64,000 nt of DNA from Planctomycetota bacterium (GTDB lineage: Bacteria; Planctomycetota; Phycisphaerae; Sedimentisphaerales; Anaerobacaceae), in the NCBI GenBank assembly GCA_025459125.1, contig JALORE010000023.1:5981-69980 (forward strand). Reading direction: 5' to 3'. The translations under genes and the position numbers were made by a program. The notes beneath the pieces were generated by a model. It was not told the origin of the DNA, made no database searches, and was given only the letters and a program-made list of their open reading frames with translations. Below, in pieces: positions 6,247-58,154 of the stretch; position 1 is the stretch's first letter, and each line of letters begins with the position of its first letter.

Positions 6247-8661
6247 CTATTCACACCGAAGTGCAACCATGGGATCGATCCGCGCCGCCCGGCGAGCGGG
6301 AATATAGCATGCCCCGCAGCCGGCGCCGAAGAGCGTTGTCAGCACCACCGCCAGCATGACGGGATCGGCCGGGCCGGTCTTGTACAACAGACTGGCAACG
6401 ATTCGACTCATCGCGAAACCGCCAAACAGACCCAATCCGGCCCCCGCCAGAATCAGCCGTCCTCCCTGATGCAGGACGGTCCGCAAGATCTGCTCGCGCG
6501 TGGCGCCCAGGGCCAGCCGGACGCCGATCTCATGAGTCCGCCGCGCCACGCTGTATTGGAGCAGGCCGTAGAGTCCCAGGGCCGCCACCACCAGAGCGAT
6601 CTGGGCAAACGCACCTACCAGGACGATGGCGAAGCGCCGGGGAGCCAGCAACGGGGAGAGGATCTCCTCAACGGTCCTTATAGGAGAGATCTTCACGTCC
6701 CTGTCCAAATCCAGGATCAGGGCCCGCAGCAAAGGAGCCACCCGCAACGGGTTGCCGTCGGTCTTGACGACCACGTCGACGCACGGCAGGCAGTAGTCTT
6801 CGGTCAGGGGCCAGTAGACGGCCACCAGGTCCGGGTTCAGCTCGCGGTAGTCCTTGAGAGTGCTCACCACGCCCAGGACCGGTCCCCGATCCCAACCGCC
6901 CAAGGTAACTTGCCGCCCAATCGGGTCCTGCCCGGAGAAGTGTCGGCGGGCCAGAAGTTCATCGATAAGGACACCCTGTTTGGTTCCCTGCATGTCCTGC
7001 TCGGCAAAACCGCGGCCTTGGAGAATCCGCATCCCGAGTGTCGAGAGAAAGCTCGGACTAACGATCTGGATGCGCGCCCATGTGTTTCGCTCCGGATCGG
7101 GGGGCCGTCCGTCAATGGTCAAGACCGTGCGGGCCGAGCGCGAGTCGAGGCGCAGGCACGGCGAAATCGCCGCGGCCGAACGAACGTGCGGCAGGGCCTG
7201 TACGCGCTGCAGGAGTTGTCTGACGAACAGCGACGCCTGGGGCCCCCCGCGGGGCCCCTCGGGGTATCTGGCGAGGGGAAGTTCGACCGGCATGACCGCG
7301 ACGTTCTTCGGCACAAAGCCCAGGTCCTCCCTCTGCAACAGGACCAGGCTCTGAACCAACATCCCGATGCCCACCAGCAAAGTCAGCGCGATGGCAATCT
7401 GCACGACCACCAGGCCATGGCACAGGCGCCGCCAGGCGCGATCGATCACCGGGCCCGACGACTCGTCTCTCAAAGTCCGGACCGGACGTACCGCGCCGGC
7501 TCTCCAAGCCGGCAGCAGACCGAAAACCAACGCCACGGTCAGGGACAGTCCGAGTGTGAAACAGAGCACGGTCCCATCGATCCGCGTCGCGCCGACGTGC
7601 GAGACATCCGCGGGGCAAACCGCCACGATTCCTTTGATGATCCAAACGGCGGCCAGAATACCCAACGCCCCGGCCGTCAGACTCAGCATGAGGCTTTCCG
7701 TCAGCAACTGGGCCAGGATACGGCCCCGGGAGGCGCCCAGCGTCACGCGGGTGGCCATTTCTTGCCGGCGCGCGTCCGTCTGCACCAGGAAAAGGCCGGC
7801 CACGTTCATACAGGTGATCAGGAGCACCAGCGCCACCGCACCCCACATGGGGTACAGCAGCTTTCGCTCGGACCCCAGCTGGAGATCCCGCAGACGTTCG
7901 ACGGTGACCTGGTAGCCGGTATAGGCCGGCGGGTCTGCCTGGGCCAGTTGTTGCTGCAGGACAGCCATATCGGCCCGCGCGCGCTCCAGACTCGCCCCGC
8001 GTTTCAGGCGGGCCCATACGACGAGGCGTTCTGCCGTTCGTGTGGGGTCGAGAACGAGGGGCACCCATAAGGCGATCTCCGCTTCCCCGGACGATTCGCG
8101 AAAACCGGCGGGCATCACTCCGACCACCGTGTAATTCTCAGCATCGGCGGTAATGCTCTGGCCGATCGCTCGGGCATCACACCCCAGATGGTCGCGCCAG
8201 AAGGCATGACTGGCCACCACCACGTGTCGGCGCTCCGGCTGCTCTTCTCCCGGCAAGAATCCCCGGCCGAGCTGGGGCAGCACACCCACCAGAGAGAAGA
8301 AACAGGGCGATACCGCCTTGGTCGAAACTTGAAATGGTTCTCCCAGTCCGGTGAGGCTCATCCGGCGCCCGGCCTGGCCGGCCATATGACCGAACACGTG
8401 GTTGTGCTCACGCCAGTGGATAAACGTCCGGTAGGAAAGATCTCGGAACCGCGGCGGGTCGTTCTTGCGCTCCTCGACTTCGACAATCCTGCCCGGGTCG
8501 TGGTAAGGCAGTGCTTCCAGCACCACGGTATTGACGACACTGAAGACCGCCGTGTTCGCGCCGATGCCGATCGATAGAATCGCCACGACCACCAGGGCAA
8601 AGCCGGGATTCCGCGCCAGCAGCCGCAAGCCGTAACGCACATCCCGCCACAGCGTTCTCAT
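6247..8661 (-). CDS. ADOP-family duplicated FtsX/MacB-type ABC permease (804 aa)
   Basis: N-terminus 'MRTLWRDVRYGLRLLARNPGF' plus TM1. Two FtsX-type modules ('LLITCMNVAGLFL', 'THEIGVRLALGA'). C-terminus '[16 protein letters not shown]'. Confidence 0.9.
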   Translation of the reverse strand: MRTLWRDVRYGLRLLARNPGFALVVVAILSIGIGANTAVFSVVNTVVLEALPYHDPGRIVEVEERKNDPPRFRDLSYRTFIHWREHNHVFGHMAGQAGRRMSLTGLGEPFQVSTKAVSPCFFSLVGVLPQLGRGFLPGEEQPERRHVVVASHAFWRDHLGCDARAIGQSITADAENYTVVGVMPAGFRESSGEAEIALWVPLVLDPTRTAERLVVWARLKRGASLERARADMAVLQQQLAQADPPAYTGYQVTVERLRDLQLGSERKLLYPMWGAVALVLLITCMNVAGLFLVQTDARRQEMATRVTLGASRGRILAQLLTESLMLSLTAGALGILAAVWIIKGIVAVCPADVSHVGATRIDGTVLCFTLGLSLTVALVFGLLPAWRAGAVRPVRTLRDESSGPVIDRAWRRLCHGLVVVQIAIALTLLVGIGMLVQSLVLLQREDLGFVPKNVAVMPVELPLARYPEGPRGGPQASLFVRQLLQRVQALPHVRSAAAISPCLRLDSRSARTVLTIDGRPPDPERNTWARIQIVSPSFLSTLGMRILQGRGFAEQDMQGTKQGVLIDELLARRHFSGQDPIGRQVTLGGWDRGPVLGVVSTLKDYRELNPDLVAVYWPLTEDYCLPCVDVVVKTDGNPLRVAPLLRALILDLDRDVKISPIRTVEEILSPLLAPRRFAIVLVGAFAQIALVVAALGLYGLLQYSVARRTHEIGVRLALGATREQILRTVLHQGGRLILAGAGLGLFGGFAMSRIVASLLYKTGPADPVMLAVVLTTLFGAGCGACYIPARRAARIDPMVALRCE

Positions 8662-8670
8662 CGACCTTTC

Positions 8671-11166
8671 CTATTCGTGTCGCAGCGCCGCCATGGGATC
8701 GATCCTGGCAGCCCGATAGGCCGGCACGGAGCAGGCCAGCAGCGCGACCATACCCAGCAGCAAAGCAGTCAAGACAAACGTCACGGGGTCGGTGGGTGTC
8801 GTTTCGAAAAGCTGGCTGCGCAGAACCCGCGTCAGGGCCCATGCGACCGCCAGGCCGGCGCCCATACCCACCGCCGCCAGGATCATGCCTTCCCGCAGCA
8901 CCAGGGCCAGCACATGCCCGCGCCGGGCTCCCAGAGCCATCCGGATTCCGATCTCCTGCACCCGGCGGGTCACGCTGTAGGCGGTCACGGCGTACAGGCC
9001 CACCAGCGCCAGGACCGTGGCCAGAGCGCCGAAGAGACTCGCCAGAAAGCCAACCAGCCGCTCGCCGGCCAGGATTCGGTCCAACCGATCGCCCATCGTC
9101 ATCATGTCCACGACGGGAATGCTGGCATCCAGTTGGCGCACGTGCGCACGGATGGCGTGAAAGACCTGCGCGGAGGCCAGGCTCGTCCGCACGTAGATGG
9201 CCATGCTGGACAGGCCGATCTGTGGATAGGGCACAAACACCTGCGGCTCAGCCGCCCGGCGGGGCCCGGCGGGCCGGGCATCCCCCACCACGCCGACGAT
9301 TTCCCGGTCCGGCTGGGCATCGGCACTCCAGCGAAAACCCACCTGGTATCCCAGGGGATTGCGACCGTCGAAGAACCACTGCACGAAGGCCTCATTGACG
9401 AGCAGCACCTGTCGCGCCCCGGGCAACTCGTCCTGCGCGGTGAAATCGCGGCCCAGTTTCAAGGACATGCCCAGAACCTGGCGGTAATCGCGTGAGATGG
9501 TGTCACAGTAGGCGCGGACGTCCTCACCCTCCCGGGGCTGGTATCCTTCGACCACAATCCCATTGACCAGGCGTGAGCTTCCCAGCAGCGACGTCTGCGC
9601 CAGGGCCACCGACTCAACGCCCGGTACCGACTGTAGTTGCGTCCGCAGGCGCTGCCAGAAAGCAGAAGTGCGCTGCCCGTCGTACCCGCTCAGCCCCGGA
9701 TTCACGTGGAACGAGACCAGATTGGTGGTCCGAAAGCCGGGATCGACACGGTACAGTGCCACGAGGCTGCGCAGGAGCAACCCGGAGCCGATCAACAGGA
9801 CCAACGACAGTCCCACCTGCAACGCGACCAGGGCCTGCCGCAGACGCGTGCCGGAACCTCCGACCACCGCGGCGGCCTGGTCCTTGAGGGTACCGACCAG
9901 ATCGACTCGTGTCGCCCACCAGGCCGGAAACAGGCCAAACAAGAGGGCCGCCGCCGCCGACACTGCAAGGTTGAAGGCCAGCATACGTCCGTTGAGGGCA
10001 GGAGACAGCGCCGCTTTCAACGGCCCCGAGGCGAACAACAGAATGCCATGGGTCGTCCAGAAGGCAATCGCCAAAGCTGCCAGTCCTCCCCCGGCCGCCA
10101 AGAGCAGGCTCTCCGCCAGCACCTGACGGAAGATCCGCCCGCGCCCGGCTCCCAGCGCCAGCCGGACTGTGATCTCCTTCTGGCGGCTCATGGCACGCGC
10201 GATGAGCAGGCTCGAGGCGCTCGCGCACGCGGCCACCAGGACCAGGGCAGCCAGTCCCATGAGCAGATGGAGCGTGGGCCTCAGGTTGGAGGACAGATCC
10301 GAGGCGCCCCGGCCCGCCGGGAGCAGCAGCGTCCGTGATTGAAGAAACTGCTCGCGATCCGGCGCCGGCACATCCGCGAATTCGGGGCTCTGGGCCTCCC
10401 CCTCGATGAGCTGCCGATAGCGGGCCTGGACCGCCGCGGCCGCCTGCGCCAGGGAAAGACCCGGTGGTAGTCGGCCAAAGACCTGCACCCACCGATTCTT
10501 GCGGTCGTCCAGTGAACGCCAGGACGGGGTGATCTGCTTCTTCATGGTGACGGGGAGGAACACCTTGGGCCGGGCATCCAGGCTGACCCCGCGGAAATTC
10601 GCCGCGGCCACCCCGACGACGACCGTGGGCACACCATTGACGAGCAGCGTGCGGCCGAGGACGGCCCGGTCCCCGCCAAAGCGGTTCTGCCAGAACTCAT
10701 GGCTCAAGACAGCCACCGGCTGGGCGTCCGAGACCGCCTCATCGGCGGCGATGAACGTGCGCCCCAGGACCGGCCGGACCCCGAGTACCTCAAAGTAGCT
10801 CGCCGAGACCAGCTCGATTTCGATGCGTTCGGCCCCCCGGCCGTCATCCACGGCCGCGGTTTCGCCCCGCCGGCAGAAAACCCCCTCGAACAAGGCCGTG
10901 CTCGCCTGGAAGTCCTGGAACATGGGATAGGAAAGTGTGGTGCTGCCCCACGCGGTACCGATGGACCGCCCCTGGGTCCGCACCAGGACCAGGGCCCCCG
11001 GATCCCGGACAGGCAGTGAACGCAGGAGGACCTGCTCAAAGATGGTGAAGATCCCGGTGTTGGCCCCGATCCCCAGCGCGAGTGTCAACACCACCGCGGC
11101 GGTGAAACCGGGCCGCCGGCCCAGACTGCAAAGCCCATACCGTATGTCGTGCCAGAACGTCCTCAT
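8671..11166 (-). CDS. ADOP-family duplicated FtsX/MacB-type ABC permease (831 aa), directly downstream of an ABC ATPase
   Basis: ORF 8671..11553. Start set at the family-typical 'MRTFWHDIRYGL' (ATG 11166, preceded by GGGAG). An alternative ATG at 11256 overlaps the ATPase stop (ATGA) but would translate the intergenic repeat. C-terminus 'AYRAARIDPMAALRHE'. Confidence 0.85.
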   Translation of the reverse strand: MRTFWHDIRYGLCSLGRRPGFTAAVVLTLALGIGANTGIFTIFEQVLLRSLPVRDPGALVLVRTQGRSIGTAWGSTTLSYPMFQDFQASTALFEGVFCRRGETAAVDDGRGAERIEIELVSASYFEVLGVRPVLGRTFIAADEAVSDAQPVAVLSHEFWQNRFGGDRAVLGRTLLVNGVPTVVVGVAAANFRGVSLDARPKVFLPVTMKKQITPSWRSLDDRKNRWVQVFGRLPPGLSLAQAAAAVQARYRQLIEGEAQSPEFADVPAPDREQFLQSRTLLLPAGRGASDLSSNLRPTLHLLMGLAALVLVAACASASSLLIARAMSRQKEITVRLALGAGRGRIFRQVLAESLLLAAGGGLAALAIAFWTTHGILLFASGPLKAALSPALNGRMLAFNLAVSAAAALLFGLFPAWWATRVDLVGTLKDQAAAVVGGSGTRLRQALVALQVGLSLVLLIGSGLLLRSLVALYRVDPGFRTTNLVSFHVNPGLSGYDGQRTSAFWQRLRTQLQSVPGVESVALAQTSLLGSSRLVNGIVVEGYQPREGEDVRAYCDTISRDYRQVLGMSLKLGRDFTAQDELPGARQVLLVNEAFVQWFFDGRNPLGYQVGFRWSADAQPDREIVGVVGDARPAGPRRAAEPQVFVPYPQIGLSSMAIYVRTSLASAQVFHAIRAHVRQLDASIPVVDMMTMGDRLDRILAGERLVGFLASLFGALATVLALVGLYAVTAYSVTRRVQEIGIRMALGARRGHVLALVLREGMILAAVGMGAGLAVAWALTRVLRSQLFETTPTDPVTFVLTALLLGMVALLACSVPAYRAARIDPMAALRHE

Positions 11167-11252: not shown

Positions 11253-11918
11253 TCATGCCTTCTGCATCCACCCGTCGCGGAGCTTGATGATCCGCTTGCT
11301 GTAGGCGGCATACTTGTCGTTGTGAGTGACCTGGATGATGGTGGTACCCTCGCGGTTGAGCTTCTTGAACAGGTCCATGATCGCTTCGCCCTGGCTGGAG
11401 TGCAGGTTGCCGGTCGGCTCGTCCGCCAAGAGGAGCTTGGGGTTGGCGATGACCGCCCGCGCGACGCCGACCAACTGCTGCTGGCCGCCGGAGAGCTGGC
11501 TGGGGAACAGGTCCTTCTTGCCCACGATGCCGAAGCGGTCCAGCGTGTCGCAAACCATCGAGGCCCGCTCGGAACCCTTGATGTTCCGGTAGGATAGCGG
11601 CACATCCAGGTTCTCATAGACCGTCAGAGTGTCGAGCAGGTTGAAGTTCTGGAACACAAAGCCGATGTACTGCTTGTTCAGGGCCAGACGCTCCTTGGGC
11701 TTGAGGGTGTGGACCGCGTGGTCGTAGAGGTAGTACTCCCCTTCCCAGTCGCCGTCGAGCATGCCGAGGATGTTGAGCAGCGTGGTTTTGCCCGCCGCCG
11801 AGGGTCCCATGAAGGTGACGAAGTCGCCCTCCTCGATGTCCAGGTTGATCTGCCGCAGGACGTAATTCTTGCCCGCCCGCGTTTCGTAGCATTTCTCGAT
11901 GTTTCTCAGTCGAATCAT
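11253..11918 (-). CDS. ABC transporter ATP-binding protein, MacB/LolD-type, stand-alone (221 aa)
   Basis: Walker A 'GPSAAGKTTLL', signature 'LSGGQQQ', Walker B 'LLLADEPTGNLH', H-loop 'VTHN'. Confidence 0.92.
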   Translation of the reverse strand: MIRLRNIEKCYETRAGKNYVLRQINLDIEEGDFVTFMGPSAAGKTTLLNILGMLDGDWEGEYYLYDHAVHTLKPKERLALNKQYIGFVFQNFNLLDTLTVYENLDVPLSYRNIKGSERASMVCDTLDRFGIVGKKDLFPSQLSGGQQQLVGVARAVIANPKLLLADEPTGNLHSSQGEAIMDLFKKLNREGTTIIQVTHNDKYAAYSKRIIKLRDGWMQKA

Positions 11919-17098: not shown

Positions 17099-17956
17099 TT
17101 ACTTATATCTTAACACGTTCATCGGATTCGTTCGAGCAGCGCGCCAGGCAGGAACCCCGCTGGCCGCCAGGGCCACGGCCACCAGGAGCAACGCCACGCC
17201 GGCAAAGGTCACCGGGTCCGTGGCGCGAACGCCGTACCGGAGACTGGGCCGCACGCGGGTCAGGACCAGCGTGTCGGCCCAGTGGGTCACCAGCAGCCCC
17301 AGCAGCCCGCCCACGAGGCTCAGGAGGATGTTCTCGGTCAGCACCTGGCGCACGATCCGCCCGCGGGAAACCCCCAGGGCCCGGCGCACGCCCATCTCCT
17401 GGCGCCGCAGAGCCGCGCGGGCCAACAGCAGGTTCGCCACGTTGCTGCACGCAATCAGCAGCACGAAGGCGGCGGAGCCGAGCAGCAACAGGAGGGTCCG
17501 GCGCTGCTCACCGAAGTAGTCGTCGAGGTACCGGTGCACGGCCACTTCCGTCAGGAAGGTCCGTCCCAGCATGGGCCGCAAGCCCATCATGGAAAAGAAG
17601 CAGGGAGAAACCAGCTTCGTCTCGATCTTCTGCGGGCGATGCACCCCGGTGAGATACACCTGCCGGTAACTGATGCCGGCGATGTCCTCGAAGACCTCGT
17701 GGTGCTCGCGCCAGTAGGCAAACCTCTCCCGCGCTGTGTTGGTTTCCGCTCCCCCTTTCCGTTGTTGGAGGAAACTGACAAGGCGGTGGGGTTCCCGGTA
17801 CGGCAGAGGCCGCAGCAGAACCGTATTGACCACGCTGAAGACCGCGGTATTGGCTCCTATGCCCAGCGCCAGAATCAGAACCACAACCGCCGCAAAGCAG
17901 GGACTCCTCGCCAGCATCCGCAGGCCGTACCGCGTGTCCTGCCACAACGTGCTCAT
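17099..17956 (-). CDS. Mini-ADOP (285 aa): in-frame deletion derivative with a single FtsX-like 4-TM layout
   Basis: Intact N-terminus 'MSTLWQDTRYGLRMLARSPCF'. Truncated periplasmic domain. TM2/TM3 of the first FtsX module ('[30 protein letters not shown]') are joined directly to the last loop and TM ('RYGVRATDPVTFAGVALLLVAVALAA...NPMNVLRYK'). Confidence 0.6.
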   Translation of the reverse strand: MSTLWQDTRYGLRMLARSPCFAAVVVLILALGIGANTAVFSVVNTVLLRPLPYREPHRLVSFLQQRKGGAETNTARERFAYWREHHEVFEDIAGISYRQVYLTGVHRPQKIETKLVSPCFFSMMGLRPMLGRTFLTEVAVHRYLDDYFGEQRRTLLLLLGSAAFVLLIACSNVANLLLARAALRRQEMGVRRALGVSRGRIVRQVLTENILLSLVGGLLGLLVTHWADTLVLTRVRPSLRYGVRATDPVTFAGVALLLVAVALAASGVPAWRAARTNPMNVLRYK

Positions 17957-22987: not shown

Positions 22988-22989
22988 CT

Positions 22990-48616: not shown

Positions 48617-48678
48617 GTAGGGTGTGCTGTGCCCACCAATTCCAAAGATCGAGTTGTGGCGTGCACAGCACACGCTAC
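48617..48678. repeat. REPIN-like palindrome (P-type) overlapping the stop codon of the upstream gene
   Basis: GTAGGGTGTGCTGTGCCCACC ... GGCGTGCACAGCACACGCTAC. The TAG stop of the 48675 gene (48675..48677) lies inside the right arm. Confidence 0.85.
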
Positions 48679-51290: not shown

Positions 51291-51839
51291 TCACACCTCC
51301 CAGCCTGGGCGGTACGTCCGGCCGACATACTGATTGATCTGGGGCTCATTCGCACACTCTCGTTTCTGCACGTTCCACCGAAGCTTCCGGCCTACGCCGG
51401 CGCAGGCCGCCAGATGACCGGTCATGATCCGCTCGGTGAGCCGGCCGGACGTGGTGGGGAAGTCACTCGTGAGGGGGCCTCCCTTCTCGATCGCGTCGAA
51501 GAGCTCGCCGAGCGCGCTGCCGGTCCGCGGCAGCGTTTTCGGCCGCGGCGGGCACTCCCGGTGTTTCTGTATGGGCAAGATGCGTGTGTCGAGACAAGAG
51601 GAGCCGGAATACATGTAGCCTCTGTCACCGATGAAGATGGATCCCACCCTACTGGGCGGCTGCAATTCGCTGCGCAACTTCCTCAGGGATTCCGGCATAT
51701 CCTCGGCTTCTTCATACGCATACACCTTCACCGGTGGCATCGCGCCCCGCGCCGGGAACTCCCGCCGCAAGACCATGTTCAAGCAATACAGTTCCTCACT
51801 GCCCCCCTGGAGGAATTGCCTGCGTGAATGTGTGCGCAT
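51291..51839 (-). pseudogene. Truncated Gfo/Idh/MocA-family oxidoreductase (Tat-like leader fused to the C-terminal domain; Rossmann domain missing)
   Basis: 182 aa. The leader is 'MRTHSRRQFLQGG'. The family-typical C-terminal end is 'LTERIMTGHLAACAGVGRKLRWNVQKRECANEPQINQYVGRTYRPGWEV'. No N-terminal NAD-binding GxGxxG region is present. Confidence 0.5.
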
Positions 51840-51851: not shown

Positions 51852-54611
51852 CTACGGGAACCGGTACACGTACCCACTGTCGCTTCGTTTGCGGATCCAC
51901 TCCATGAACGCCGCCGGATGAATGATCTTGGCACCGCTTGGATGGACATGGGCCGACGCCAAGAGCGACTCTTTCATCTGTGCCGGCGTCAGGTCCGGAC
52001 GGATCTGCCAGCCCAAGGCCAGGATACCGGCGGCATAGGGGATGGTATCGCTGTATCCCGCCTTGGACCGCGGTTGGCGGCTGCGCCGGCCCCCGCCGTC
52101 GTAGGCATAGCCCAACCGCCAGCCCTCCTCGGCCTGGGCGACGGTTCGCGGCGCGGATGGCACATGGATATGCCCCTGGTCGACCTCGACCGGCCCGTTG
52201 CGGAAACCCGGGGTGCAGGCCTCGACACTTTCTCGATTCTGCGGGTCCAACCAGCAGAGGGATACAAAGCCGTGGTGCCAAGTGCAGTCCAGCACCAGGA
52301 TGCCTTGGTCCTGGGCCCGCTGTACGGCCTCGTCCCAGAGAGACTGGTTCTTATACACCGATCCCTCGCCCGAGGGTTGGGACGATACCGATACGACCCG
52401 GATCCTTTGCTCTTTCGGCGTGCCCTCATTGTACGTGACGAACCCGTCCAGGGCCCGGGCATAATAACCGGCATCCGCCTCCCAGGAGGGAACGGCCACC
52501 ACGTGCAGGCTGGCCCCCGGGGCGGTGCCACACCGCGTGCCCACCAATTGGCTGGCCATAGCGGGTCCGTGTCCACTGCTTTTGTGCGGGCCGCAACCGG
52601 CGTCGTGGTACGAGACAATCTTGCCGGCGTACTCCGGGTGATCCAGCAGGAGCGGCTGATCGATCAGCCCCACATGGACGCCTGCCCCGGTGATCCCCTG
52701 GGCCTGCAAAGCCCGGACCCCGAGCCCCGGATTCATGCCCTCCTGCAACAGCGCCTGCGGATCGAATCCCGTGGGCAAGCGTTCCGCCGGAGGCCACTGG
52801 GTATCCTGATTGAATTCGAGGGTATCCAGAATATCGCCGGCGGAGCGCAGGTCCAACGCGCGCAGATCCTTGCCACCTACATCGGCATACGCCTCGAGAC
52901 CCTCGCGACGATCCGCCCGGGGACTGTCCGTCTTATCGAGTTGTGCCGGGCCAACGTTGATCTCCAGCACCGTGCCATCATTCTTGCTGATTTCAAAGGA
53001 GAGATTCTGGTCTTCGTAGGTAAGAATGTCTTTGGTCGCAAACTTGCTGAGCTGGAAGTCATTACTGAAGACTTGTTTGATCTCTTCCACCGGGTCACCC
53101 ACTCCCAAGCCGCCGGCGAATCGGTAGGCAGGACTGAGCACCGTGATCCCGATGATGGCATCGTCATCGATCCCAAACGCGAGATCCTCGTACGACATGG
53201 TATACCGCTTCGGGAGATTGTCCCGAGCATACGTCTCTGGCCCCCAATGAACCCATCTTGGCTCTCCCAGCTTCTTCACCAGCTCGTCTTTACTCATGCC
53301 AAATGGGTAGTCGCCTACGCGCACTCCAGGCACGATGGTTTGAGTTTCAGAATTTATCGGCAGAGGCGACCGTACGGTGCGACGCTCACTGGGCGGGCGG
53401 TTCAATGTTGCGGTCTCACCGGCTTGAATCGCACGAATCAACCGGACAGGATCAACGATGGGTCCGAGGGGCCTGGTCATCCCACGGCGCTTCAGTTCGA
53501 TAGTACGCCCGGTTTGCACGGCCAGGGCCCAGAACTTCTCCGGGGTGATCGCAGGATCCACCTGCGCGGCCAGAGCATACACCCCGGCGATGTAAGGGAC
53601 AGCCCAACTGTAACCACCGTTTCGGTAAAAAACGTATTCGCGGATACCGCCGGGGCTGGCGGCGGTGCGCGAGTCCATCGGTACCGAGAAACACATTCCT
53701 AAAGGTGGGGACGGACGGGACCAGAAATCTCTGGCCCGAAACAGGCCCGGTGCATAGGATTCGAATACGTCCGGATCCGCCAAAGGCGAACGATCCAGCG
53801 CGTCGAAGTCGCATCCCTCATGGACCTGTCCGACAGTCGTGCACACAATCAACATGCCGGCCGCCAGTGCTTTCTGTACCGCTTTGGCAATGTCCTCATA
53901 GCCCTCGCGCGACGGCCCCCAACCGGTCGACATGGAGAGGACTCGGATCTTGTTGTCGGGCGGGAGCTGCGCGTTGACTTCGATGATTCGGTGGATACAT
54001 CGAGCCTGGCGCGGCAGAGGGCTTCCGCCCGGCCGGGCGATATAATAGAGCTCGGCCCCCGGAGCGACGCCGACGGTTTTGCCCAGGGCAATCGAGGCGA
54101 CGGCCGCCCCGTGCATCTGCGGCCCACTGTGGCTGGGCACATCGATTTCCTCGTAGAAACGGACACGGTCGGCATACTCCTGGTGGTCAACCAACAGACG
54201 TTGATCGATGATGGCAATCTTCACTCCGCGGCCGGTGATTCCTTCCTCGTGCAAACGGCGGACGCCCAAGCCGGGGTTCTTCCCCAACTCCATGATCTTG
54301 CGCCAATCGAAGCCAGCGGGCATCCGCTCGGGAGCCGGCCAGACCGTCCCGTCATCGAAGTGCGCATACAGGAGATCCTCGAGCGCCGCGCGCAAATCGA
54401 GCTTCGACACGTCCCGGCCCCGCAAATCGACCTGGAAGGGATTGTCCGAATTGGGGTCGTATTTCGGGATGGTTGTCCACTCCCGAGGAGCTTCTTTCCC
54501 AGCGGGCGTGATGCTATGCTTCGCCGGCACCTGTGGATTGGCCTGCACGTCGTGAGAGCCGGCCAGCGGCATTCCGACCAAGATCAGTAATGCTGCTGTC
54601 CCTCGACTCAT
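51852..54611 (-). CDS. Exported S8 (subtilisin-like) serine peptidase with two tandem catalytic modules
   Basis: ORF 51852..54674 with start moved to signal peptide 'MSRGTAALLILVGMPLAGSHDVQA' (ATG 54611). Module 1 has 'VKIAIIDQ', 'HGAAVASI', 'GGYSWAVPYIAG'. Module 2 has 'VHVGLIDQ', 'GHGPAMASQ', 'AGYSDTIPYAAG'. Confidence 0.8.
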   Translation of the reverse strand: MSRGTAALLILVGMPLAGSHDVQANPQVPAKHSITPAGKEAPREWTTIPKYDPNSDNPFQVDLRGRDVSKLDLRAALEDLLYAHFDDGTVWPAPERMPAGFDWRKIMELGKNPGLGVRRLHEEGITGRGVKIAIIDQRLLVDHQEYADRVRFYEEIDVPSHSGPQMHGAAVASIALGKTVGVAPGAELYYIARPGGSPLPRQARCIHRIIEVNAQLPPDNKIRVLSMSTGWGPSREGYEDIAKAVQKALAAGMLIVCTTVGQVHEGCDFDALDRSPLADPDVFESYAPGLFRARDFWSRPSPPLGMCFSVPMDSRTAASPGGIREYVFYRNGGYSWAVPYIAGVYALAAQVDPAITPEKFWALAVQTGRTIELKRRGMTRPLGPIVDPVRLIRAIQAGETATLNRPPSERRTVRSPLPINSETQTIVPGVRVGDYPFGMSKDELVKKLGEPRWVHWGPETYARDNLPKRYTMSYEDLAFGIDDDAIIGITVLSPAYRFAGGLGVGDPVEEIKQVFSNDFQLSKFATKDILTYEDQNLSFEISKNDGTVLEINVGPAQLDKTDSPRADRREGLEAYADVGGKDLRALDLRSAGDILDTLEFNQDTQWPPAERLPTGFDPQALLQEGMNPGLGVRALQAQGITGAGVHVGLIDQPLLLDHPEYAGKIVSYHDAGCGPHKSSGHGPAMASQLVGTRCGTAPGASLHVVAVPSWEADAGYYARALDGFVTYNEGTPKEQRIRVVSVSSQPSGEGSVYKNQSLWDEAVQRAQDQGILVLDCTWHHGFVSLCWLDPQNRESVEACTPGFRNGPVEVDQGHIHVPSAPRTVAQAEEGWRLGYAYDGGGRRSRQPRSKAGYSDTIPYAAGILALGWQIRPDLTPAQMKESLLASAHVHPSGAKIIHPAAFMEWIRKRSDSGYVYRFP

Positions 54612-54684
54612 GGCTTGTTCCCTGCGATGGAGGCGACTGGAAACGCAGAACCACAACTCAGGTAATACCGGCATACTATTCTAC

Positions 54685-57213
54685 TCACTCGCATCTCAAG
54701 GCTCTCATCGGATCGATCTTCGCGGCCCGGCGGGCGGGCAGCCAGCAGGCGAGCAGGGACACGCCCAGCAGCAGCAGCGAGACGCCGCCAAACGTCAGCG
54801 GGTCGGTCGCGGTGACGCCGTACAGCAGGCTCGCGACCAGCCGCGTCACGGCCAGGGCCGCCCCCACGCCGATCGCAAGACCGAGCAGGACCAGCTTCAA
54901 TCCCTGCCGGATCACGAGGGCGACCACGTCCCGGCGGCGGGCTCCCAGGGCCATGCGGACCCCGATCTCCGGTGTCCGGCGGACCACTCCGTAGGACAGG
55001 ATGCCGTACAGACCCAGACAAGCCAACACCAGAGCCAGCAGGCTGAAGGACCCGGCCAGGCTGGACAACGAGCGTTCCCGGAACAAGTGATCGTCGAGCA
55101 TGGCGTGCATCGTCTGCAGGCCGGTCACCTCGACGCTGGGGTCCAGCTCGCGCACAATCTGCCGGATGCCGTCCGCAACGGTCAGAGGGTTGCCCAACGT
55201 CCTGACGTAGAGGTAGGGCAAGACCCGTCCCTGGGTCCCCACGAGACTATAGACGGAAGCTCTTGGGCCGCCGCGCAATCTCTTGTAGATCACGTCCTTG
55301 ACCACCCCGATGACCTCGAGAAACGGCCCGGATTCGCCCGCCTGCAGGAGTTGCCCCACGGGATCTTCCCGGCCAAAGAGCGTTCGGGCGTTCGTCTCAT
55401 CCAGGATCACCGGACGCGCCGCCTGGCCGGACTGACCGACGGAGGCCGCCGCTTCGTCCTGCGGCCCGAAGCTCCGCCCGCGCAGCACCGGGATCCCCAT
55501 GGTCTCGAAGTACCGCACGGTAACGCCGGTGCCACGCACTTCCAGGCCTTCTTCGGCGCCGAAGTCGCGACCGATCCGAACCACCCGGTTCGGCCCCCAC
55601 CCCCACTCGCTGCCACTCACGGGCTGGATGCTGGCACAACCAACGGACCGCACACTCGACAGGCCCTCGACACGCCGAAGAACCTCCTGGTAAACGCTGC
55701 CGCGGCGCGCCTCGTCATAGCCCTTGCCCCAATCGAGCTCGAACGCCAGGAGATGCTCCCGGTCGAACCCCGTATCCAGCGACTTGAGTTTCTGCACGGT
55801 CCGCACAAACAGGCCGGCCCCGATCAGCAGGCAACACGACACGGCGATTTGGGAGACCACGAGCGCTTTGTTCCAGAAGTGCCTGGGCGCGCCGTCCCCG
55901 GGGCCCGTCCGATCCTTGAGTGTGGTGGTCAGGTTGAGACGACTGCCTTGCCAAGCCGGGAGCAGCCCGAAAAGCATTCCGGCCCAAGCAGAAGCAAAGA
56001 AGGTGAACACCAGGATGCGCAGATCCAGCGCCAGATCGAGCCGAACGGCCGCGCCGAACCGAGGAATCGTATAGTGGGCCAGCAACGGAGCGCCCCACCG
56101 CGCGACGAGCAGGCCCAACGCCCCTCCCAGTGCCGCCAGCAGCAGACTCTCCGTCGCGAGTTGCCGAATCAGGGCCCAGCGGCTTGCACCGAGGGCGGCA
56201 CGCACGCCGAACTCGCGCCGACGCGCTGCGCCGCGCGCCAGGAGAAGCCCAGCCAGATTGGCGCACGCGACCAGTAAAACCAGGCCGACCATCGCCATGA
56301 GGATCAGGAGCGGCCGTTGGAGCCCCCAGCCCATGTCGGAATACCCCGCCCCGCCGGCAGCCAGCGCGATCCTCACCTTCGGAACATCCTGCTTCTGCTT
56401 CTCCGACCCGCGGCGGGCGAACCGAGCGTTCAAGTCGCTAAGCCACCGCTGAAAACCGACGTCCAATTCGGCACGCGCCTGTTCCGCGCCCACTCCGGGC
56501 CTCAGACGCCCCATAATGCGTAGCCACTGGCTGGTGGGATTGTCAAAATCCTGCTCTTGAACTGATCTGTTCACGAGCGGGGTCGCCTGAAGGGGCAGCC
56601 ACAGATCGGGGTAGCTTCCCACGATGAATCCCGTGAATCCGCGGGGAGTCACGCCGACGATGGTCACGGCGGTGTTCTCCAGCCGGATGGTTCTGCCGAC
56701 GATCGCCGGTTCCAGGCCGAAACGCCGTTGCCAGAATCCGTAGCTGATGACAGCGACCGCCTCCGCAACGCCCCGGCGATCATCCTCCGGCGTCAGTGCC
56801 CGGCCGAGAAGGACAGGTGCCCCCAGGACATCGAAGAAATTCCCCGAAACCGCCTGAACACCCACGCGCCCCGGCTCGCCGCCCTGGGCCCAATCCGCAC
56901 TCATGCTGTACCGATCCATGGAGCTCGCCGCCAGCAGACCGGAGAACGACTGACTGTCCTCGCACCACTGGCGATACGTCACATAAGAAAAGCTCGAATA
57001 TCGGTTGTGGGACGAATCCATGATGGCCACGACGGCGAGTTGTTGTGGATCCTTCACCGGCAGCGACTTCCACAGCAAGGTCTCAATCAGGGTGAAGATC
57101 GCCGTGTTGGCGCCGATGCCGAGCGCCAGCGTGAGCACCGCCACCGCCGTGAAACCGGGACTCTTCACCAGCACGCGGACGCCGTAGCGGAGATCTTGCC
57201 ACCAAGCCGTCAT
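54685..57213 (-). CDS. ADOP-family duplicated FtsX/MacB-type ABC permease (842 aa), long-N-domain subfamily
   Basis: N-terminus 'MTAWWQDLRYGVRVLVKSPGF', C-terminus 'ARRAAKIDPMRALRCE'. Confidence 0.9.
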   Translation of the reverse strand: MTAWWQDLRYGVRVLVKSPGFTAVAVLTLALGIGANTAIFTLIETLLWKSLPVKDPQQLAVVAIMDSSHNRYSSFSYVTYRQWCEDSQSFSGLLAASSMDRYSMSADWAQGGEPGRVGVQAVSGNFFDVLGAPVLLGRALTPEDDRRGVAEAVAVISYGFWQRRFGLEPAIVGRTIRLENTAVTIVGVTPRGFTGFIVGSYPDLWLPLQATPLVNRSVQEQDFDNPTSQWLRIMGRLRPGVGAEQARAELDVGFQRWLSDLNARFARRGSEKQKQDVPKVRIALAAGGAGYSDMGWGLQRPLLILMAMVGLVLLVACANLAGLLLARGAARRREFGVRAALGASRWALIRQLATESLLLAALGGALGLLVARWGAPLLAHYTIPRFGAAVRLDLALDLRILVFTFFASAWAGMLFGLLPAWQGSRLNLTTTLKDRTGPGDGAPRHFWNKALVVSQIAVSCCLLIGAGLFVRTVQKLKSLDTGFDREHLLAFELDWGKGYDEARRGSVYQEVLRRVEGLSSVRSVGCASIQPVSGSEWGWGPNRVVRIGRDFGAEEGLEVRGTGVTVRYFETMGIPVLRGRSFGPQDEAAASVGQSGQAARPVILDETNARTLFGREDPVGQLLQAGESGPFLEVIGVVKDVIYKRLRGGPRASVYSLVGTQGRVLPYLYVRTLGNPLTVADGIRQIVRELDPSVEVTGLQTMHAMLDDHLFRERSLSSLAGSFSLLALVLACLGLYGILSYGVVRRTPEIGVRMALGARRRDVVALVIRQGLKLVLLGLAIGVGAALAVTRLVASLLYGVTATDPLTFGGVSLLLLGVSLLACWLPARRAAKIDPMRALRCE

Positions 57214-57311
57214 TGCAGGACTCCAGTTCTCAGTTGTCAGTGGCCAGTTCTCGGTTGGGTGCCATCAGTGCTCTTGCTGTCGACTGCCAACTGTGAGCCG
57301 TCAACTTCGTC
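57214..57311 (-). repeat. Q-type intergenic hairpin element
   Basis: 'actccagttctcagttgtcagtggccagttctcggttggg ... cttgctgtcgactgccaactgtgagccgtcaact'. Confidence 0.65.
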
Positions 57312-58154
57312 TTATTCATATCGCAACGCCACCATCGGATCGATCCGCATCGCCCGGCAGGCGGGCAGCAGGCAGGCCAGCAGCGACACGGCCGCGATCA
57401 GCAGGGGGACCAGGACAAAGGTCACCGGGTCAATTGCACTGACACCATGCAGGTAACTGGACAGGAAGCGCGTCAAGCCGAGCGCGCCGGCCAAGCCGAC
57501 CGCCGAGCCAAGGAGCGACAGCACCAGCCCCTGCTTCAGGATCAGCGTCAGGTTCGTCGCCCGGCGGGCGGGCGCACTGCAAGCCACGACCGAGGCGGCA
57601 CTCCGCAGCAACGCCGCACGGCCAATCGTCGGACCATCCGTGGGCTCATACCGGAACGACGGGAACTCGAGATCCACCGCCGGCATGTGGTGGGGGTCGT
57701 AGCCGGGGTCGATACGCAGCCGGTTGGCGAAGGTCCGGACGCCCAGACGGGCCCCGACGATCAGGAGGAAAGCCAACGCGATTTGGGAGGCCGCCAGCAA
57801 CGAATGCATCCACCGCGTCGGCCGTCCGGTCGTCGCGTGTCTCGCATCCCCCCGGAAGGCGGCGGAAAGCTCCGTTCCCCAGGCCTGTACGGCCGGGATC
57901 AGACTGAAGGCGGTTCCCGTCGCCAAGGCCACTGCACCGGCAAACGCCAGGGCGGCCACATCGAGGTGTATGCCTCCGACCACGGGCATGAACTTCAGGA
58001 CCGGGGGTCGCACCAAGGCGCCCTGGATCACGCTGAAGATCGTCGTCGCCGCGCCAATGCCCAGGCCCGGGCACAGAACCGCGGTCACCGTCCAGCCGGG
58101 GTTCCGGCGCAGCACTCGCATGCCATTTCGCACATCCTGCCCGAGCATTCCCAT
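57312..58154 (-). CDS. ADOP remnant (280 aa): multiply deleted but in-frame copy, first ORF behind sigma-54 promoter C
   Basis: 'MGMLGQDVRNGMRVLRRNPGW' (ATG 58154, SD AGGAGA) ... 'ACRAMRIDPMVALRYE'. It retains TM1, the end of the first FtsX module, TM5, and TM7-TM8. The rest of track ORF 57312..59378 is an antisense or out-of-frame artefact. Confidence 0.55.
   Translation of the reverse strand: MGMLGQDVRNGMRVLRRNPGWTVTAVLCPGLGIGAATTIFSVIQGALVRPPVLKFMPVVGGIHLDVAALAFAGAVALATGTAFSLIPAVQAWGTELSAAFRGDARHATTGRPTRWMHSLLAASQIALAFLLIVGARLGVRTFANRLRIDPGYDPHHMPAVDLEFPSFRYEPTDGPTIGRAALLRSAASVVACSAPARRATNLTLILKQGLVLSLLGSAVGLAGALGLTRFLSSYLHGVSAIDPVTFVLVPLLIAAVSLLACLLPACRAMRIDPMVALRYE

Follow-up and report, generated by a model that had tools for sequence, protein, structure and literature searches.

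Comparative analysis of a 20-unit ADOP permease gene array with candidate shared partner genes and predicted sigma-54 promoters in a Planctomycetota bacterium

ADOP paralogs reportedly form a cluster of 10 in Psychroflexus torquis. ADOP genes are usually not adjacent to ATPase genes, so partners encoded elsewhere would have to be common in other genomes. In the Escherichia coli permease YbbP, two coupling helices bind two copies of one ATPase (PMC12646458). The locus analyzed here lay in a 64-kb window (the whole stretch of DNA analyzed) of a Planctomycetota bacterium. A profile HMM of the intact copies, run across all six reading frames, confined ADOP-homologous sequence to 6250-58154 of the minus strand and resolved 20 units, bearing out the co-directional array of 15 intact and five decayed genes (6247-58154) proposed in the initial annotation (Table 1). 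All 15 intact proteins scored above the curated TIGR03434 cut-off (707.6-893.2 vs 622.3 bits) and each had two PF12704 and two PF02687 domains, in agreement with the earlier ADOP/MacB-FtsX assignment. The N-terminal motif and the C-terminal tail ARRAARIDPMVALRYE were both found in ADOPs; the hallmarks once ascribed to every member applied to the intact copies but not to the relics (A5 was left with a single FtsX module and four TM helices). From 389 to the end of the window, all genes with Pfam support lay on the minus strand, and gaps within gene strings were 5-152 bp; the earlier picture of one strand with very short gaps thus stood except for three long gaps (251-456 bp), the only ones present, in which the promoters were located. 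The array was interrupted by five non-ADOP genes: two for ABC ATPases, one for an adaptor, one for a subtilase, and a 182-aa ORF without match in a Pfam search. Four independent assemblies matched the window (identity: L001, 100%; L009, 99.97%; L010, 99.9%; L011, 99.97%) and jointly covered 1253-21918, 27924-33939, and 54033-58010, and therefore the array parts covered by them were not an assembly artefact.

Table 1. Features of the ADOP array and its surroundings (window coordinates)
Feature	Coordinates	Strand	Description
TolC-like outer-membrane efflux protein	2443..4077	-	PF02321, 135 bits
Predicted sigma-54 promoter P3	4109..4124	-	TGGCATGTTGTTTGCT; heads outer-membrane factor gene
Enhancer-like palindrome UAS3	4196..4232	-	CGTCCGGATTTGGGCGCGCCGGTTCCAAAAACGGACA; with P3
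Beta-lactamase-fold serine hydrolase (blaC-like)	4534..6231	-	PF00144, 206.6 bits; last gene of P2 string
ADOP A1	6247..8661	-	Intact, 804 aa; TIGR03434 808.2 bits; full-length HMM match
ADOP A2	8671..11166	-	Intact, 831 aa; 879.5 bits
ABC ATPase 1 (MacB/DarD/LolD/FtsE type)	11253..11918	-	221 aa; PF00005
ADOP A3	12068..14509	-	Intact, 813 aa; 780.9 bits
ADOP A4	14605..17001	-	Intact, 798 aa; 773.3 bits
ADOP A5	17099..17956	-	285-aa in-frame deletion derivative; HMM positions 1-139, 259-356, 749-804
ADOP A6	17966..20350	-	Intact, 794 aa; 821.2 bits
ADOP A7	20464..22875	-	Intact, 803 aa; 888.0 bits
Hairpin spacer, class c	22876..22989	-	TGGAATNN repeat arms; MFE -45.9 kcal/mol, z = -4.8
ADOP A8	22990..25488	-	Intact, 832 aa; 707.6 bits
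Hairpin spacer, class b	25489..25586	-	CAGTTGN / NCAACTG heptamer arms; MFE -38.3 kcal/mol, z = -2.8
ADOP A9	25587..28004	-	Intact, 805 aa; 871.8 bits
ADOP A10	28073..30472	-	Intact, 799 aa; 893.2 bits
ADOP A11	30567..32862	-	Broken; HMM 1-252 and 338-805 in different frames
Hairpin spacer, class a	32863..32961	-	GTAGGGTGTGCTGTGCACACC...GGTGTGCACAGCACACCCTAC; MFE -55.4 kcal/mol, z = -6.7
ADOP A12	32859..34841	-	In-frame loss of HMM 560-747; stop codon lost
ABC ATPase 2 (MacB/LolD/YbbA type)	34925..35671	-	248 aa from ATG at 35671; PF00005
HlyD/MacA-type periplasmic adaptor (MFP)	35761..37029	-	422 aa; PF13437, PF16576; TIGR01730 and DarC matches
Predicted sigma-54 promoter P2	37087..37102	-	TGGCATGTTGTTTGCT; heads MFP-ATPase2-A12...A1-blaC-like, ~31 kb
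Enhancer-like palindrome UAS2	37181..37217	-	TGTCCGGATTTGGGCGCGCCGGTTCGGAAAGCGGACA; ~97 bp upstream of P2
ADOP A13	37466..38323	-	Relic; HMM 2-217, 737-774, 780-805 in three frames
ADOP A14	38476..40908	-	Intact, 810 aa; 810.8 bits
ADOP A15	41007..43433	-	Intact, 808 aa; 834.7 bits
ADOP A16	43508..46009	-	Intact, 833 aa; 798.3 bits
ADOP A17	46098..48599	-	Intact, 833 aa; 792.3 bits
ADOP A18	48675..51206	-	Intact, 843 aa; 822.8 bits
182-aa ORF	51291..51839	-	Predicted ORF
S8 subtilase	51852..54674	-	940 aa; PF00082
ADOP A19	54685..57213	-	Intact, 842 aa; 889.0 bits
ADOP A20	57312..58154	-	Relic; HMM 1-50, 363-473, 728-805; one frame, internal deletions
Predicted sigma-54 promoter P1	58192..58207	-	TGGCACAGCGTTTGCA; heads A20-A19-S8-ORF-A18...A13, ~21 kb
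Enhancer-like palindrome UAS1	58289..58325	-	TGTCCGAATTCGGGCGCGCGGATTTCAAAACCGGACA; ~100 bp upstream of P1
Exported HZS-alpha-domain protein	58406..61072	-	PF18582; CxxCH at residues 645 and 697
Sensor histidine kinase	61558..62880	-	PAS, HisKA, HATPase domains; two TM helices
Sigma-54-dependent response regulator	62977..64000	-	AAA+ sigma-54 interaction PF00158, 216 bits; HTH_8 PF02954

The label "orphan" did not fit this locus, since two MacB/LolD-type ATPase genes, an adaptor gene, and an outer-membrane factor gene lay inside or flanking the array. ATPase 1 had DarD as its top NCBIfam match (250.7 bits), followed by FtsE, MacB NBD, and LolD, while ATPase 2 matched DarD (261.8 bits), MacB NBD (239.5 bits), and LolD (229.8 bits); the two were 44-46% identical to each other, and showed 91-95% (ATPase 1) and 90-96% (ATPase 2) aa identity to their counterparts in relatives. 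The adaptor had an N-terminal TM anchor (residues 19-37) and was 69-81% identical (aa) in most relatives and 63% in L052. The TolC-like duct had orthologs (58-67% aa) in L051, L063, and L074, preceded there too by the UAS and promoter; the serine hydrolase gene was also present within the arrays of L002, L005, and L132; and the HZS-alpha-domain protein gene, placed between the kinase gene and P1, occupied the same position in L006, L007, L023, and L074. The kinase had its two TM helices ~10 residues apart (intramembrane-sensing type), and the response regulator gave NtrC-family matches, its frame being open to the window end with the receiver domain beyond. No biosynthetic or resistance marker to fix the substrate was found among the genes in and around the array. 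Because likely ATPases, adaptor, duct, and sigma-54 switch all occurred at the locus, it resembles one inducible efflux machine, and we put at about one half the probability that it encodes an inducible tripartite type VII ABC envelope efflux/extraction system of the MacAB-TolC kind, composed of a fixed chassis and a permease library.

The AlphaFold model of A1 (pLDDT 80, pTM 0.70) had E. coli YbbP as its best full-length structural match (9ge6/9ge7, E 5e-18), followed by MacB, Spr0694-0695, LolE, and BceB, while the best PDB match by sequence was MacB. Each intact ADOP is modeled as a single-chain, 8-TM pseudo-dimer composed of two MacB-like modules and two periplasmic domains. Across the 15 intact paralogs (~33% identity), the most conserved parts were all cytoplasmic, with mean pairwise column identities of 0.5 in the N-terminal helix, 0.52 in the TM2-3 loop (R..E.AVR.ALGA), 0.53 in the TM6-7 loop (RT.EIGIRMALGA), and 0.63-0.87 in the C-tail; the periplasmic domains had the lowest values (0.16-0.38), confirming them as the most variable parts, and the earlier view that the genes form a repertoire, not just one transporter, was upheld. 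In the proposed system, the chassis would be composed of an intramembrane-type kinase, a sigma-54 activator, one HlyD-type adaptor, two MacB/LolD-type ATPases, and one TolC-like duct, and the 15 intact ADOPs would be interchangeable permeases. Upon a signal, the activator would bind the TGTCCGG-N21-CCGGACA enhancer; the three sigma-54 promoters would fire, giving polycistronic transcripts of ~21 and ~31 kb plus that of the duct gene; the invariant cytoplasmic coupling helices and C-terminal tail of an ADOP would dock two copies of the shared ATPases; ATP-driven mechanotransmission would move the two divergent periplasmic domains; and a paralog-specific substrate would be driven out of the periplasm or outer leaflet, either through adaptor and duct or towards a partner hydrolase. 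The two ATPases could, however, serve their immediate neighbours only.

Three exact TGGCAY-N5-TTGCW (-24/-12) sites were found vs 0.15 expected, all on the coding strand and all within the three long gaps, each with a 37-nt palindrome ~90-100 bp upstream of it; when one mismatch was allowed in the motif, extra sites appeared merely at chance level. P2 was kept upstream of the adaptor gene in relatives. In L002-L007 and nine further metagenome contigs, the same UAS and promoter stood ahead of adaptor, ADOP, and duct genes, and orthologous kinase and regulator genes adjoined these UAS/promoter loci. This regulatory layer (three sigma-54 promoters plus conserved enhancer) had been overlooked in the initial annotation. 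The spacers between genes were imperfect, stably folding palindromes of 74-152 bp, three classes of which are exemplified in Table 1. Like hairpins were present between non-ADOP genes (kinase/regulator, 62881-62976; OMF/sulfatase gap, 2024-2442), and are therefore a general trait of the intergenic DNA of this lineage. Such stable hairpins could terminate transcription, which makes expression of the distal genes uncertain.

The related loci came from MAG or metagenome contigs no longer than 22 kb, with frameshifts in some (L005 and L006) that may be sequencing errors. They shared the same core genes, with the chassis kept in every relative, but their ADOP sets were very different, in line with the turnover expected earlier: the ATPases were mostly 90-96% identical (82% for one L071 copy), a conservation that could reflect a general constraint on NBDs, while most ADOPs were <=58% identical. 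L133 harbored one adaptor and one ATPase gene followed by eight ADOP genes, and the window harbored 15 intact permease genes with two ATPase, one adaptor, and one duct gene. Orthologs at higher identity were found for A2 (L003, 77% aa), A8 (L004, 66% aa), and A17 (L006, 82% aa). ATPase 1 was often followed by clade-II ADOPs (A2/A8/A4-like), as in the window, L003 (there preceding the A2 ortholog), L004, L071, and L132.

The gene death noted earlier proved to be ongoing, with relics generated via internal deletions. A5 was derived via deletion from an intact gene, its intact 800-aa counterpart lying at L132:6791-9190, and the same mini-gene was present in L001 and L009. A11 had lost 173 bp between 31966 and 31967, which removed TM2 and coupling helix 1 and shifted the frame; the junction displayed CTGT(T)CCGGCG microhomology, and the JGI contig L010 contained the additional 173 bp and encoded an intact 822-aa A11, the deletion being polymorphic within a 99.9%-identical population. 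The A12 ORF ran through the spacer and overlapped the A11 start, and A20 was the first gene downstream of P1.

Two other functional readings were weighed against the shared-chassis system. A co-regulated cluster of independent pumps, with ATPases encoded elsewhere or local ATPases acting for adjacent copies only and no sharing or modularity, would agree with the usual lack of neighbouring ATPase genes in the family, with the divergence of the two ATPases from each other, and with the frequent position of ATPase 1 before clade-II ADOPs, which hints at specific pairings; we nevertheless hold it unlikely, given one adaptor and one duct gene per 15 permeases under the same enhancer/promoter type, cytoplasmic coupling elements nearly invariant in all paralogs, and chassis genes retained in every relative while ADOPs vary. 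It is far less probable still that ADOPs are ATPase-independent periplasmic receptors or scaffolds, not transporters, which signal to the kinase as BceB does to BceS. The short loop of the kinase means that an accessory sensor is probably needed, BceAB-type permeases share the ADOP fold class, and variable periplasmic domains would suit receptors, but the NBD-docking coupling-helix motifs are invariant, ATPase genes are present, adaptor and duct genes are sensible for export only, and sensing in Bce systems itself depends on ATP-driven transport.

As to the origin of the copies, the initial annotation envisaged a rapidly evolving ligand-recognition repertoire, generated by recent tandem duplication and decay with diversifying selection on the periplasmic domains. 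The periplasmic variability, the five degraded copies (one deletion still polymorphic), and the large differences in ADOP complement among relatives speak for it, but it is now rather improbable and its "birth" part is already largely refuted. No near-identical neighbours were present: paralog pairs had 29-48% aa identity (mostly 29-40%), with a maximum of 70% for A16/A17. Most window copies grouped in the tree with orthologs from other Planctomycetota MAGs, and A17 was nearer to the L006 copy than to A16; the A16/A17 split is thus older than the divergence from the L006 organism, and the duplications predate these species. Nor was rapid evolution in the sense of diversifying selection seen, as every paralog and ortholog pair tested had dN/dS values of 0.11-0.48 across its five regions, both periplasmic domains included (just modestly more relaxed); with such values in every domain, there was no sign of recent duplication or diversifying selection, and the copies are best taken as old paralogs, not fresh duplicates. 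The sole traceable gain was A4, which had a GC3 of 0.574 vs ~0.82 for its neighbours, had orthologs (84-91% aa) equally low in GC3 yet set among different neighbours, and displayed a dS of 0.13/0.25 vs 0.40-1.2 for neighbouring genes (3-8x lower). A4 is probably a recently transferred cassette, and traceable new copies appear to arise by horizontal insertion of single genes, not local duplication. Under the shared-chassis reading, the repertoire is old and changes by internal-deletion loss, spacer rearrangement, and horizontal single-gene gain. Synteny broke exactly at gene borders, the rearrangement units being single genes bounded by spacers, and the A4 homology block contained the upstream hairpin spacer plus the ORF. 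Together with the co-orientation of genes mostly lacking their own promoter and separated by folding palindromes, these features resemble an integron-like array in which a site-specific recombinase moves single ADOP cassettes at hairpin recombination sites. We consider this highly improbable: no integrase or other recombinase gene was found within the 64-kb window, hairpins of the same kind separate non-ADOP genes, and, unlike an attC cassette, the transferred block carried its hairpin at the 5' side and did not extend beyond the stop codon. Homologous recombination is the simpler mechanism: exact matches between paralogs reached 42 nt, and for 70 of 79 pairs they were situated within the shared 3' coding tail.

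The ADOP array was delimited with a profile HMM built from the intact copies and run over all six frames of the window: ADOP-like sequence was restricted to 6250-58154 and made up 20 units (A1 to A20), of which 15 were full length (794-843 aa) and five were degraded (see the table below). All 15 intact copies matched NCBIfam TIGR03434 ("ADOP family duplicated permease"; curated cut-off 622.3 bits) end to end, from model position 1 or 2 to 803, with scores of 707.6-893.2 bits, while degraded unit A5 scored 300 bits and fell under the cut-off; the internal duplication was present in each intact polypeptide as two MacB_PCD (PF12704) and two FtsX (PF02687) domains. Base composition was ~65% G+C, and all Pfam-supported genes of the 64 kb lay on the minus strand. 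The copy count, coordinates, motifs, and co-orientation that the initial annotation had read from the DNA were thus upheld by the profile HMM, TIGR03434, and Pfam, but its description of copies as near-identical was not: pairwise aa identity among the intact copies was 29-48%, apart from A16/A17 (70%) and A18 versus A16 and A17 (52-55%), and the pairwise matrix held no near-identical duplicates. Four contigs of other assemblies covered about half of the array at 99.9-100% identity (window 1253-21918, 27924-33939, and 54033-58010), and for these parts an assembly artefact or collapsed repeats could be ruled out because of these independent matches.

Features located in the window (coordinates are window positions)
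Feature	Position	Strand	Description
TolC-like outer-membrane factor (duct)	2443-4077	minus	PF02321; downstream of array
Sigma-54 promoter P3	4109-4124	coding strand (minus)	TGGCAY-N5-TTGCW
Beta-lactamase-fold hydrolase	4534-6231	minus	downstream of array
ATPase1	11253-11918		ABC ATPase within array
A4	14605-17001	minus	intact ADOP copy
A5	17099-17956	minus	285-aa product of in-frame deletion
A11	30567-32862	minus	deletion plus frameshift
A12	32859-34841	minus	in-frame deletion, stop codon gone
ATPase2	34925-35671		ABC ATPase within array
HlyD-type adaptor	35761-37029	minus	PF13437 and PF16576
Sigma-54 promoter P2	37087-37102	coding strand (minus)	TGGCAY-N5-TTGCW
A13	37466-38323	minus	fragments spread over three frames
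S8 subtilase	51852-54674	minus	inside array
A20	57312-58154	minus	several internal deletions
Sigma-54 promoter P1	58192-58207	coding strand (minus)	TGGCAY-N5-TTGCW
HZS-like protein	58406-61072		upstream of array
Histidine kinase	61558-62880		upstream of array
Sigma-54 response regulator	62977-64000	minus	PF00158 and HTH_8
Hairpin spacers	11167-11252, 11919-12067, 14510-14604, 17002-17098, 20351-20463, 22876-22989, 25489-25586, 32863-32961, 35672-35760, 38324-38475, 40909-41006, 43434-43507, 48600-48674, 62881-62976
Hairpin class a			GTAGGGTGTGCTGTGCACACC paired with its own complement
Hairpin class b			arms of tandem CAGTTGN heptamers
Hairpin class c			arms of TGGAATNN octamers
Kinase/regulator spacer hairpin	62881-62976		AATCATAA type

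The ADOP polypeptide displayed eight TM helices and two alpha/beta periplasmic domains (hydropathy; AlphaFold model of A1, pLDDT 80, pTM 0.70). The best full-length structural match of the A1 model was E. coli YbbP (9ge6/9ge7), followed by MacB, Spr0694-0695, LolE, BceB, and HrtB (Foldseek, probability 1.00 for all, YbbP included), and the best sequence-based match among solved structures was MacB (E 1e-42); as modeled, the ADOPs fit the type VII ABC (MacB/FtsX) fold, in which TM1 and TM2 of each 4-TM module are separated by a periplasmic Porter/Sabre domain. The segments best conserved among the 15 paralogs were those facing the cytoplasm (N-terminal helix, TM2-3 loop, TM6-7 loop, and C-terminal tail), and the motifs R..E.AVR.ALGA (TM2-3) and RT.EIGIRMALGA (TM6-7) were nearly invariant in 15/15 copies; from their sequence, these two loops have the character of cytoplasmic coupling helices and are predicted to dock the NBD. 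The least conserved segments were both periplasmic domains, which agreed with the initial annotation in taking these as the variable parts. Regional dN/dS (Nei-Gojobori) was 0.11-0.48 in three paralog trios and three ortholog pairs, with the older pairs near synonymous saturation and only the closer ones informative, and it was a little higher in the periplasmic domains than elsewhere. Since dN/dS was below 0.5 in each region of nine pairs, purifying selection was found everywhere, and positive selection on the periplasmic domains was rejected.

Within the array lay two ABC ATPase genes of the MacB/LolD/FtsE/DarD subfamily (ATPase1 and ATPase2), the adaptor gene, the subtilase gene, and a 182-aa ORF with no match in Pfam; upstream of the array lay genes for an exported HZS-alpha-domain protein, a histidine kinase, and a sigma-54-dependent response regulator. 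ATPase1 was flanked by A2 and A3, ATPase2 adjoined A12, and the remaining ADOPs were non-adjacent to an ATPase gene while belonging to the same gene strings. In the original ADOP description, "orphan" denotes a permease with no ABC ATPase gene fused or adjacent; the initial annotation had carried this term over, and it is unfit for the present locus because ATPase, adaptor, and duct genes share the ADOP strings, the ATPases and the adaptor inside the array and the duct downstream. Exact-protein look-ups for ATPase2, A16, and the adaptor gave no match. The HZS-like protein was an exported polypeptide of 888 aa, whose middle domain is of the hydrazine-synthase-alpha type and which has two CxxCH motifs for haem binding. 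In several relatives its gene was conserved at this place, with the kinase gene on one side and the first sigma-54 promoter on the other. The histidine kinase had two TM helices ~10 residues apart, which is an intramembrane-sensing architecture and recalls BceS, a kinase sensing via a type VII ABC permease.

Sequence comparison was extended to related MAG loci of Planctomycetota, Phycisphaerae, and Pirellulales, retrieved with the adaptor as anchor. A chassis of non-permease genes was kept in these loci and in further contigs: ATPase2 was 90-96% identical, ATPase1 mostly 91-95% (82% in locus L071), and the adaptor mostly 69-81% (63% in locus L052), and the kinase, the regulator, the HZS-like protein, and the duct were likewise found. 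The number, order, and identity of ADOPs, in contrast, varied widely, from one fragmented copy between the HZS and duct genes in L074 to at least eight consecutive copies behind one adaptor and one ATPase in L133. In the neighbor-joining tree, A2, A4, A8, A9, A14, A17, and A19 paired with copies of other MAGs and not with paralogs of the window, A17 being nearer to the copy in locus L006 than to A16; the paralog lineages therefore predate these species. Neither the pairwise identities nor the tree gave evidence of recent duplication among the window copies, so the simultaneous birth that had been read from near-identical neighbors is not sustained. In locus L132, the A4 ortholog was flanked on both sides by ATPase1 copies (9194-9904 and 12550-13308; 95% and 94.5% aa identity to ATPase1 of the window), and ATPase genes are therefore also duplicable inside such arrays.

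Gaps of >160 bp numbered just three inside the gene string, and each held, on the coding strand, a perfect match to the sigma-54 -24/-12 element (P1, P2, and P3); these three exact sites compared with 0.15 expected, and zero shuffles gave three. A one-mismatch scan of the window returned extra sites at chance level only, on the other strand, and thus no internal sigma-54 promoters were found. A 37-nt palindrome, TGTCCGGATTYGGGCGCGCCGNTYNCAAAACCGGACA, stood ~90-100 bp upstream of each of the three promoters; it is a putative enhancer or upstream activating sequence (UAS), conserved in >12 related loci. In six related loci from GTDB MAGs and on ~9 further metagenome contigs, the palindrome-promoter unit preceded a gene for the adaptor, an ADOP, or the outer-membrane factor, often adjoining kinase orthologs (75-89% aa identity) and regulator orthologs (85-93%), and two NCBI MAG contigs, examined for the promoter only, likewise had a sigma-54 promoter in front of such genes. 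Metagenome contigs scanned with the enhancer 18-mer yielded noise for the most part: ~70 of the 80 listed loci were chance matches in GC-rich coding DNA, and the full palindrome stood in only ~10. The gene complement of a tripartite pump was present, with a HlyD-family adaptor and a TolC-family duct encoded together with the permeases and both placed behind one type of UAS and sigma-54 promoter. The layout would most simply be read as a pair of long transcription units under sigma-54 and one more promoter, all driven by the adjacent two-component system: (i) A20-A19-S8-ORF-A18...A13 would be transcribed from P1, (ii) adaptor-ATPase2-A12...A3-ATPase1-A2-A1-hydrolase from P2, and (iii) the duct gene from P3.

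The repertoire showed traces of deletion, rearrangement, and transfer. A5 corresponded to an intact 800-aa gene of L132 minus two segments; it was still an open frame, containing TM1, a shortened periplasmic stub, and three more TM helices, and its two in-frame deletions fused module 1 to the end of module 2, giving a single-module FtsX-like topology. A11 differed from the 99.9%-identical metagenome contig L010, which comes from the same population and in which the gene was intact (822 aa), solely by an inactivating 173-bp deletion (window 31966/31967; L010:1974-2146) flanked by microhomology CTGT(T)CCGGCG; this "relic" is a polymorphism that exists today or, with lower probability, a difference between assemblies. 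The unit of rearrangement was the single gene, nucleotide homology with orthologs starting and stopping at gene borders. A4 had a GC3 of 0.57, compared with ~0.82 in its neighbors, and its orthologs L132:9971-12391 (91% identical) and L133:9902-12391 (84%) had a GC3 of 0.55-0.56 and different neighbors. Synonymous divergence of A4 from these two was 0.13 and 0.25, 3-8 times lower than the 0.40-1.2 measured between the same genomes for the ATPases, the adaptor, the hydrolase, and other ADOPs, and the shared block consisted of the upstream hairpin spacer plus the ORF and ended at the stop codon, which looks like the signature of a recent horizontal spread of one gene together with its upstream spacer. 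Exact nucleotide matches of up to 42 nt joined distant paralogs otherwise ~32% identical, and of the 79 pairs with matches of at least 17 nt, 70 had them within the final ~60 nt of the ORFs (examples are window 22990-23050 and 43508-43570); the 3' coding tail may plausibly act as a homology box at which cassettes recombine.

Most intergenic spacers (74-152 bp) formed a single long hairpin, 12/20 folding at z ≤ -2.6 with a lowest value of -8.7. These hairpins fell into at least three unrelated sequence classes, some with arms of tandem 7-8-mers, and an Rfam scan of the window for structured spacer RNAs gave zero matches. They are a property of the intergenic DNA of the lineage and not of the array, because they also occurred between non-ADOP genes such as those of the kinase and the regulator; they could act in mRNA stabilisation or processing, in transcription attenuation, or as recombination hot spots. 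Similar spacer hairpins were carried by related MAG loci.

We propose that the locus encodes a tripartite, inducible system of the type VII ABC kind: one ATPase set, one adaptor, and one duct would serve many permeases, each a single chain and exchangeable for the others, and the substrate range would be determined by their divergent periplasmic domains; ATPase sharing, assembly with the adaptor and the duct, the substrates, and the inducing signal are what we infer. The proposal is made because of the parts list, the 15:2:1:1 ratio of intact permease, ATPase, adaptor, and duct genes, the invariant NBD-docking elements, the strong conservation of the ATPases, the promoter and enhancer type that the units have in common, and a chassis that stays constant while the permeases vary. 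That the ADOPs would instead be independent pumps, merely co-regulated, is improbable given the single adaptor and duct for 15 permeases and the nearly invariant docking elements. Still less probable is a sensor repertoire feeding the intramembrane kinase, for which BceAB-BceRS, where an intramembrane-sensing histidine kinase is combined with a permease of type VII ABC, offers a putative functional analogy; Bce systems differ in having an OmpR-type regulator, sigma-70 promoters, a single permease, and a Firmicutes host.

Two further readings involve the exchange of single genes. One is a plug-in cassette system, in which a fixed sigma-54 chassis (intramembrane kinase, activator, adaptor, two ATPases, and duct) would accept single ADOP genes through horizontal exchange among Planctomycetota, integron-like in outcome and without an integrase: each ADOP gene would lie between a hairpin spacer and a 3' homology box of ~40-60 nt common to the genes, recombination would occur at these borders and diversify envelope efflux specificity, and the kinase might read transporter flux, as Bce modules do. 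This reading is improbable; if it were true, shared ATPases would be the answer to how "orphan" ADOPs are energised. The other, an integron-like cassette system proper, could likewise appeal to hairpin-bounded genes and is very unlikely. An integron would have an IntI tyrosine recombinase with attI beside the array, and no integrase or recombinase was present among the ORFs of the 64-kb window. As for attC sites, which would stand at the 3' end of each cassette, hairpin spacers do exist, but they travelled on the 5' side of A4, belonged to several unrelated sequence classes, and were found between non-cassette genes too; the integron reading was rejected on the missing integrase and on hairpins that were not cassette-specific.

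The proposed shared-chassis system was compared with known ones. With the ADOP family (TIGR03434), the locus shared end-to-end matches above the cut-off and a large paralogous family of unassigned function; its host was a member of Planctomycetota and not an acidobacterium, with the closest loci in Planctomycetota, Phycisphaerae, and Pirellulales MAGs, so the acidobacterial lineage of the original ADOP name did not apply (the current NCBIfam name has no lineage restriction), and control would be by a sigma-54 two-component system, with no PadR-type regulator visible in the window. E. coli YbbP, which the ADOPs resemble, is a type VII ABC permease formed as a pseudo-dimer from one chain; it has a pair of Porter/Sabre domains in the periplasm, and its two coupling helices bind two copies of one ATPase (PMC12646458; YbbAP-TesA PDB 9GE6-9GE8). 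The hydrolase partner in YbbAP-TesA recalls the beta-lactamase-fold hydrolase and subtilase genes of the array; YbbP differs from ADOPs in having 10 TM helices, including a TM5-6 linker, as against eight without the two linker helices, sequence identity is just ~14-15%, and YbbAP is single copy in E. coli, with no array, adaptor, or duct. MacAB-TolC has the same periplasmic core domain, FtsX TM module, and ATPase subfamily, as well as HlyD-type adaptor and TolC-type duct genes; MacB, however, is a homodimer with a fused N-terminal NBD, whereas an ADOP has two modules fused together and its NBD is a separate protein, and the window has many alternative permeases per one adaptor and one duct. 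The darobactin exporter DarBCD and DevBCA-HgdD resemble the locus in that the ATPase is a protein of its own, accompanied by an adaptor and a permease of the MacB type, and the DarB profile (~777 residues) has an architecture similar to ADOPs; DarD was the best match of both window ATPases and 7/15 ADOPs matched DarB weakly, all far under the equivalog cut-offs (DarD 251-262 versus 375; DarB ≤51 versus 700), and unlike those systems the window had no RiPP or glycolipid biosynthesis genes nearby. In Group II ECF transporters, an EcfAA'T module shared by many S components parallels, by analogy only, the proposed single energiser with many membrane subunits; their fold and transport direction are unrelated, and sharing is demonstrated in ECF and inferred for the array.

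ADOP paralog clusters were already known (PMC3914696). Genomic island 43 of Psychroflexus torquis, which was horizontally acquired, contains a 42-kb, highly translated cluster whose ADOP paralogs number ten according to the text and eight according to the figure legend; other transporter genes, ATP-binding ones included, stand among them, and the cluster has pseudogenes (Feng et al. 2014, PMC3914696). Dyadobacter genomes have 28-33 ADOP copies (PMC11573002). P. torquis belongs to Bacteroidota, the window array has twice as many copies, and no sigma-54/enhancer architecture, shared-chassis argument, or single-cassette transfer is reported for that cluster (PMC3914696), which was the one descriptive cluster report located under the ADOP family name. 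The ADOP family is not discussed in the Solibacter genome paper, and thin literature searches for type VII ABC in Acidobacteria and MacB in Planctomycetes found nothing. What appears to be new here is the phylum, the array size, the sigma-54/enhancer regulon and the conserved chassis that goes with it, the argument for ATPase sharing, and the evidence of single-gene transfer and deletion polymorphism. The locus adds Planctomycetota to Bacteroidota, for which the papers located describe many ADOP copies, and makes the "orphan" puzzle testable in that the permeases are encoded alongside a single adaptor, a single duct, and two ATPases of strong conservation; the predicted sigma-54 enhancer/promoter under the adjacent two-component system and the invariant cytoplasmic docking elements are testable too. 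If one ATPase set does energise many permeases, this would amount to a new principle in the organisation of type VII ABC systems and would help explain the broad envelope defence and export repertoires of soil and sediment bacteria. The A4 transfer signature and the A11 deletion polymorphism provide a concrete view of repertoire turnover.

Two gaps had features of their own. The 419-bp gap between the outer-membrane-factor and sulfatase genes (2024-2442) was dense with different GC-rich palindromes, such as GTAGCACGGGCATCTTGCCCGTG, unrelated to the sigma-54 elements. A plus-strand ORF (60640-61545, 301 aa), with no match in Pfam, reached into the 485-bp gap between the kinase and HZS-like genes (61073-61557); its C-terminal ~140 aa contained a nucleotidyltransferase-like GS...D.D motif, and, if real, it would be the sole plus-strand gene candidate in the window.
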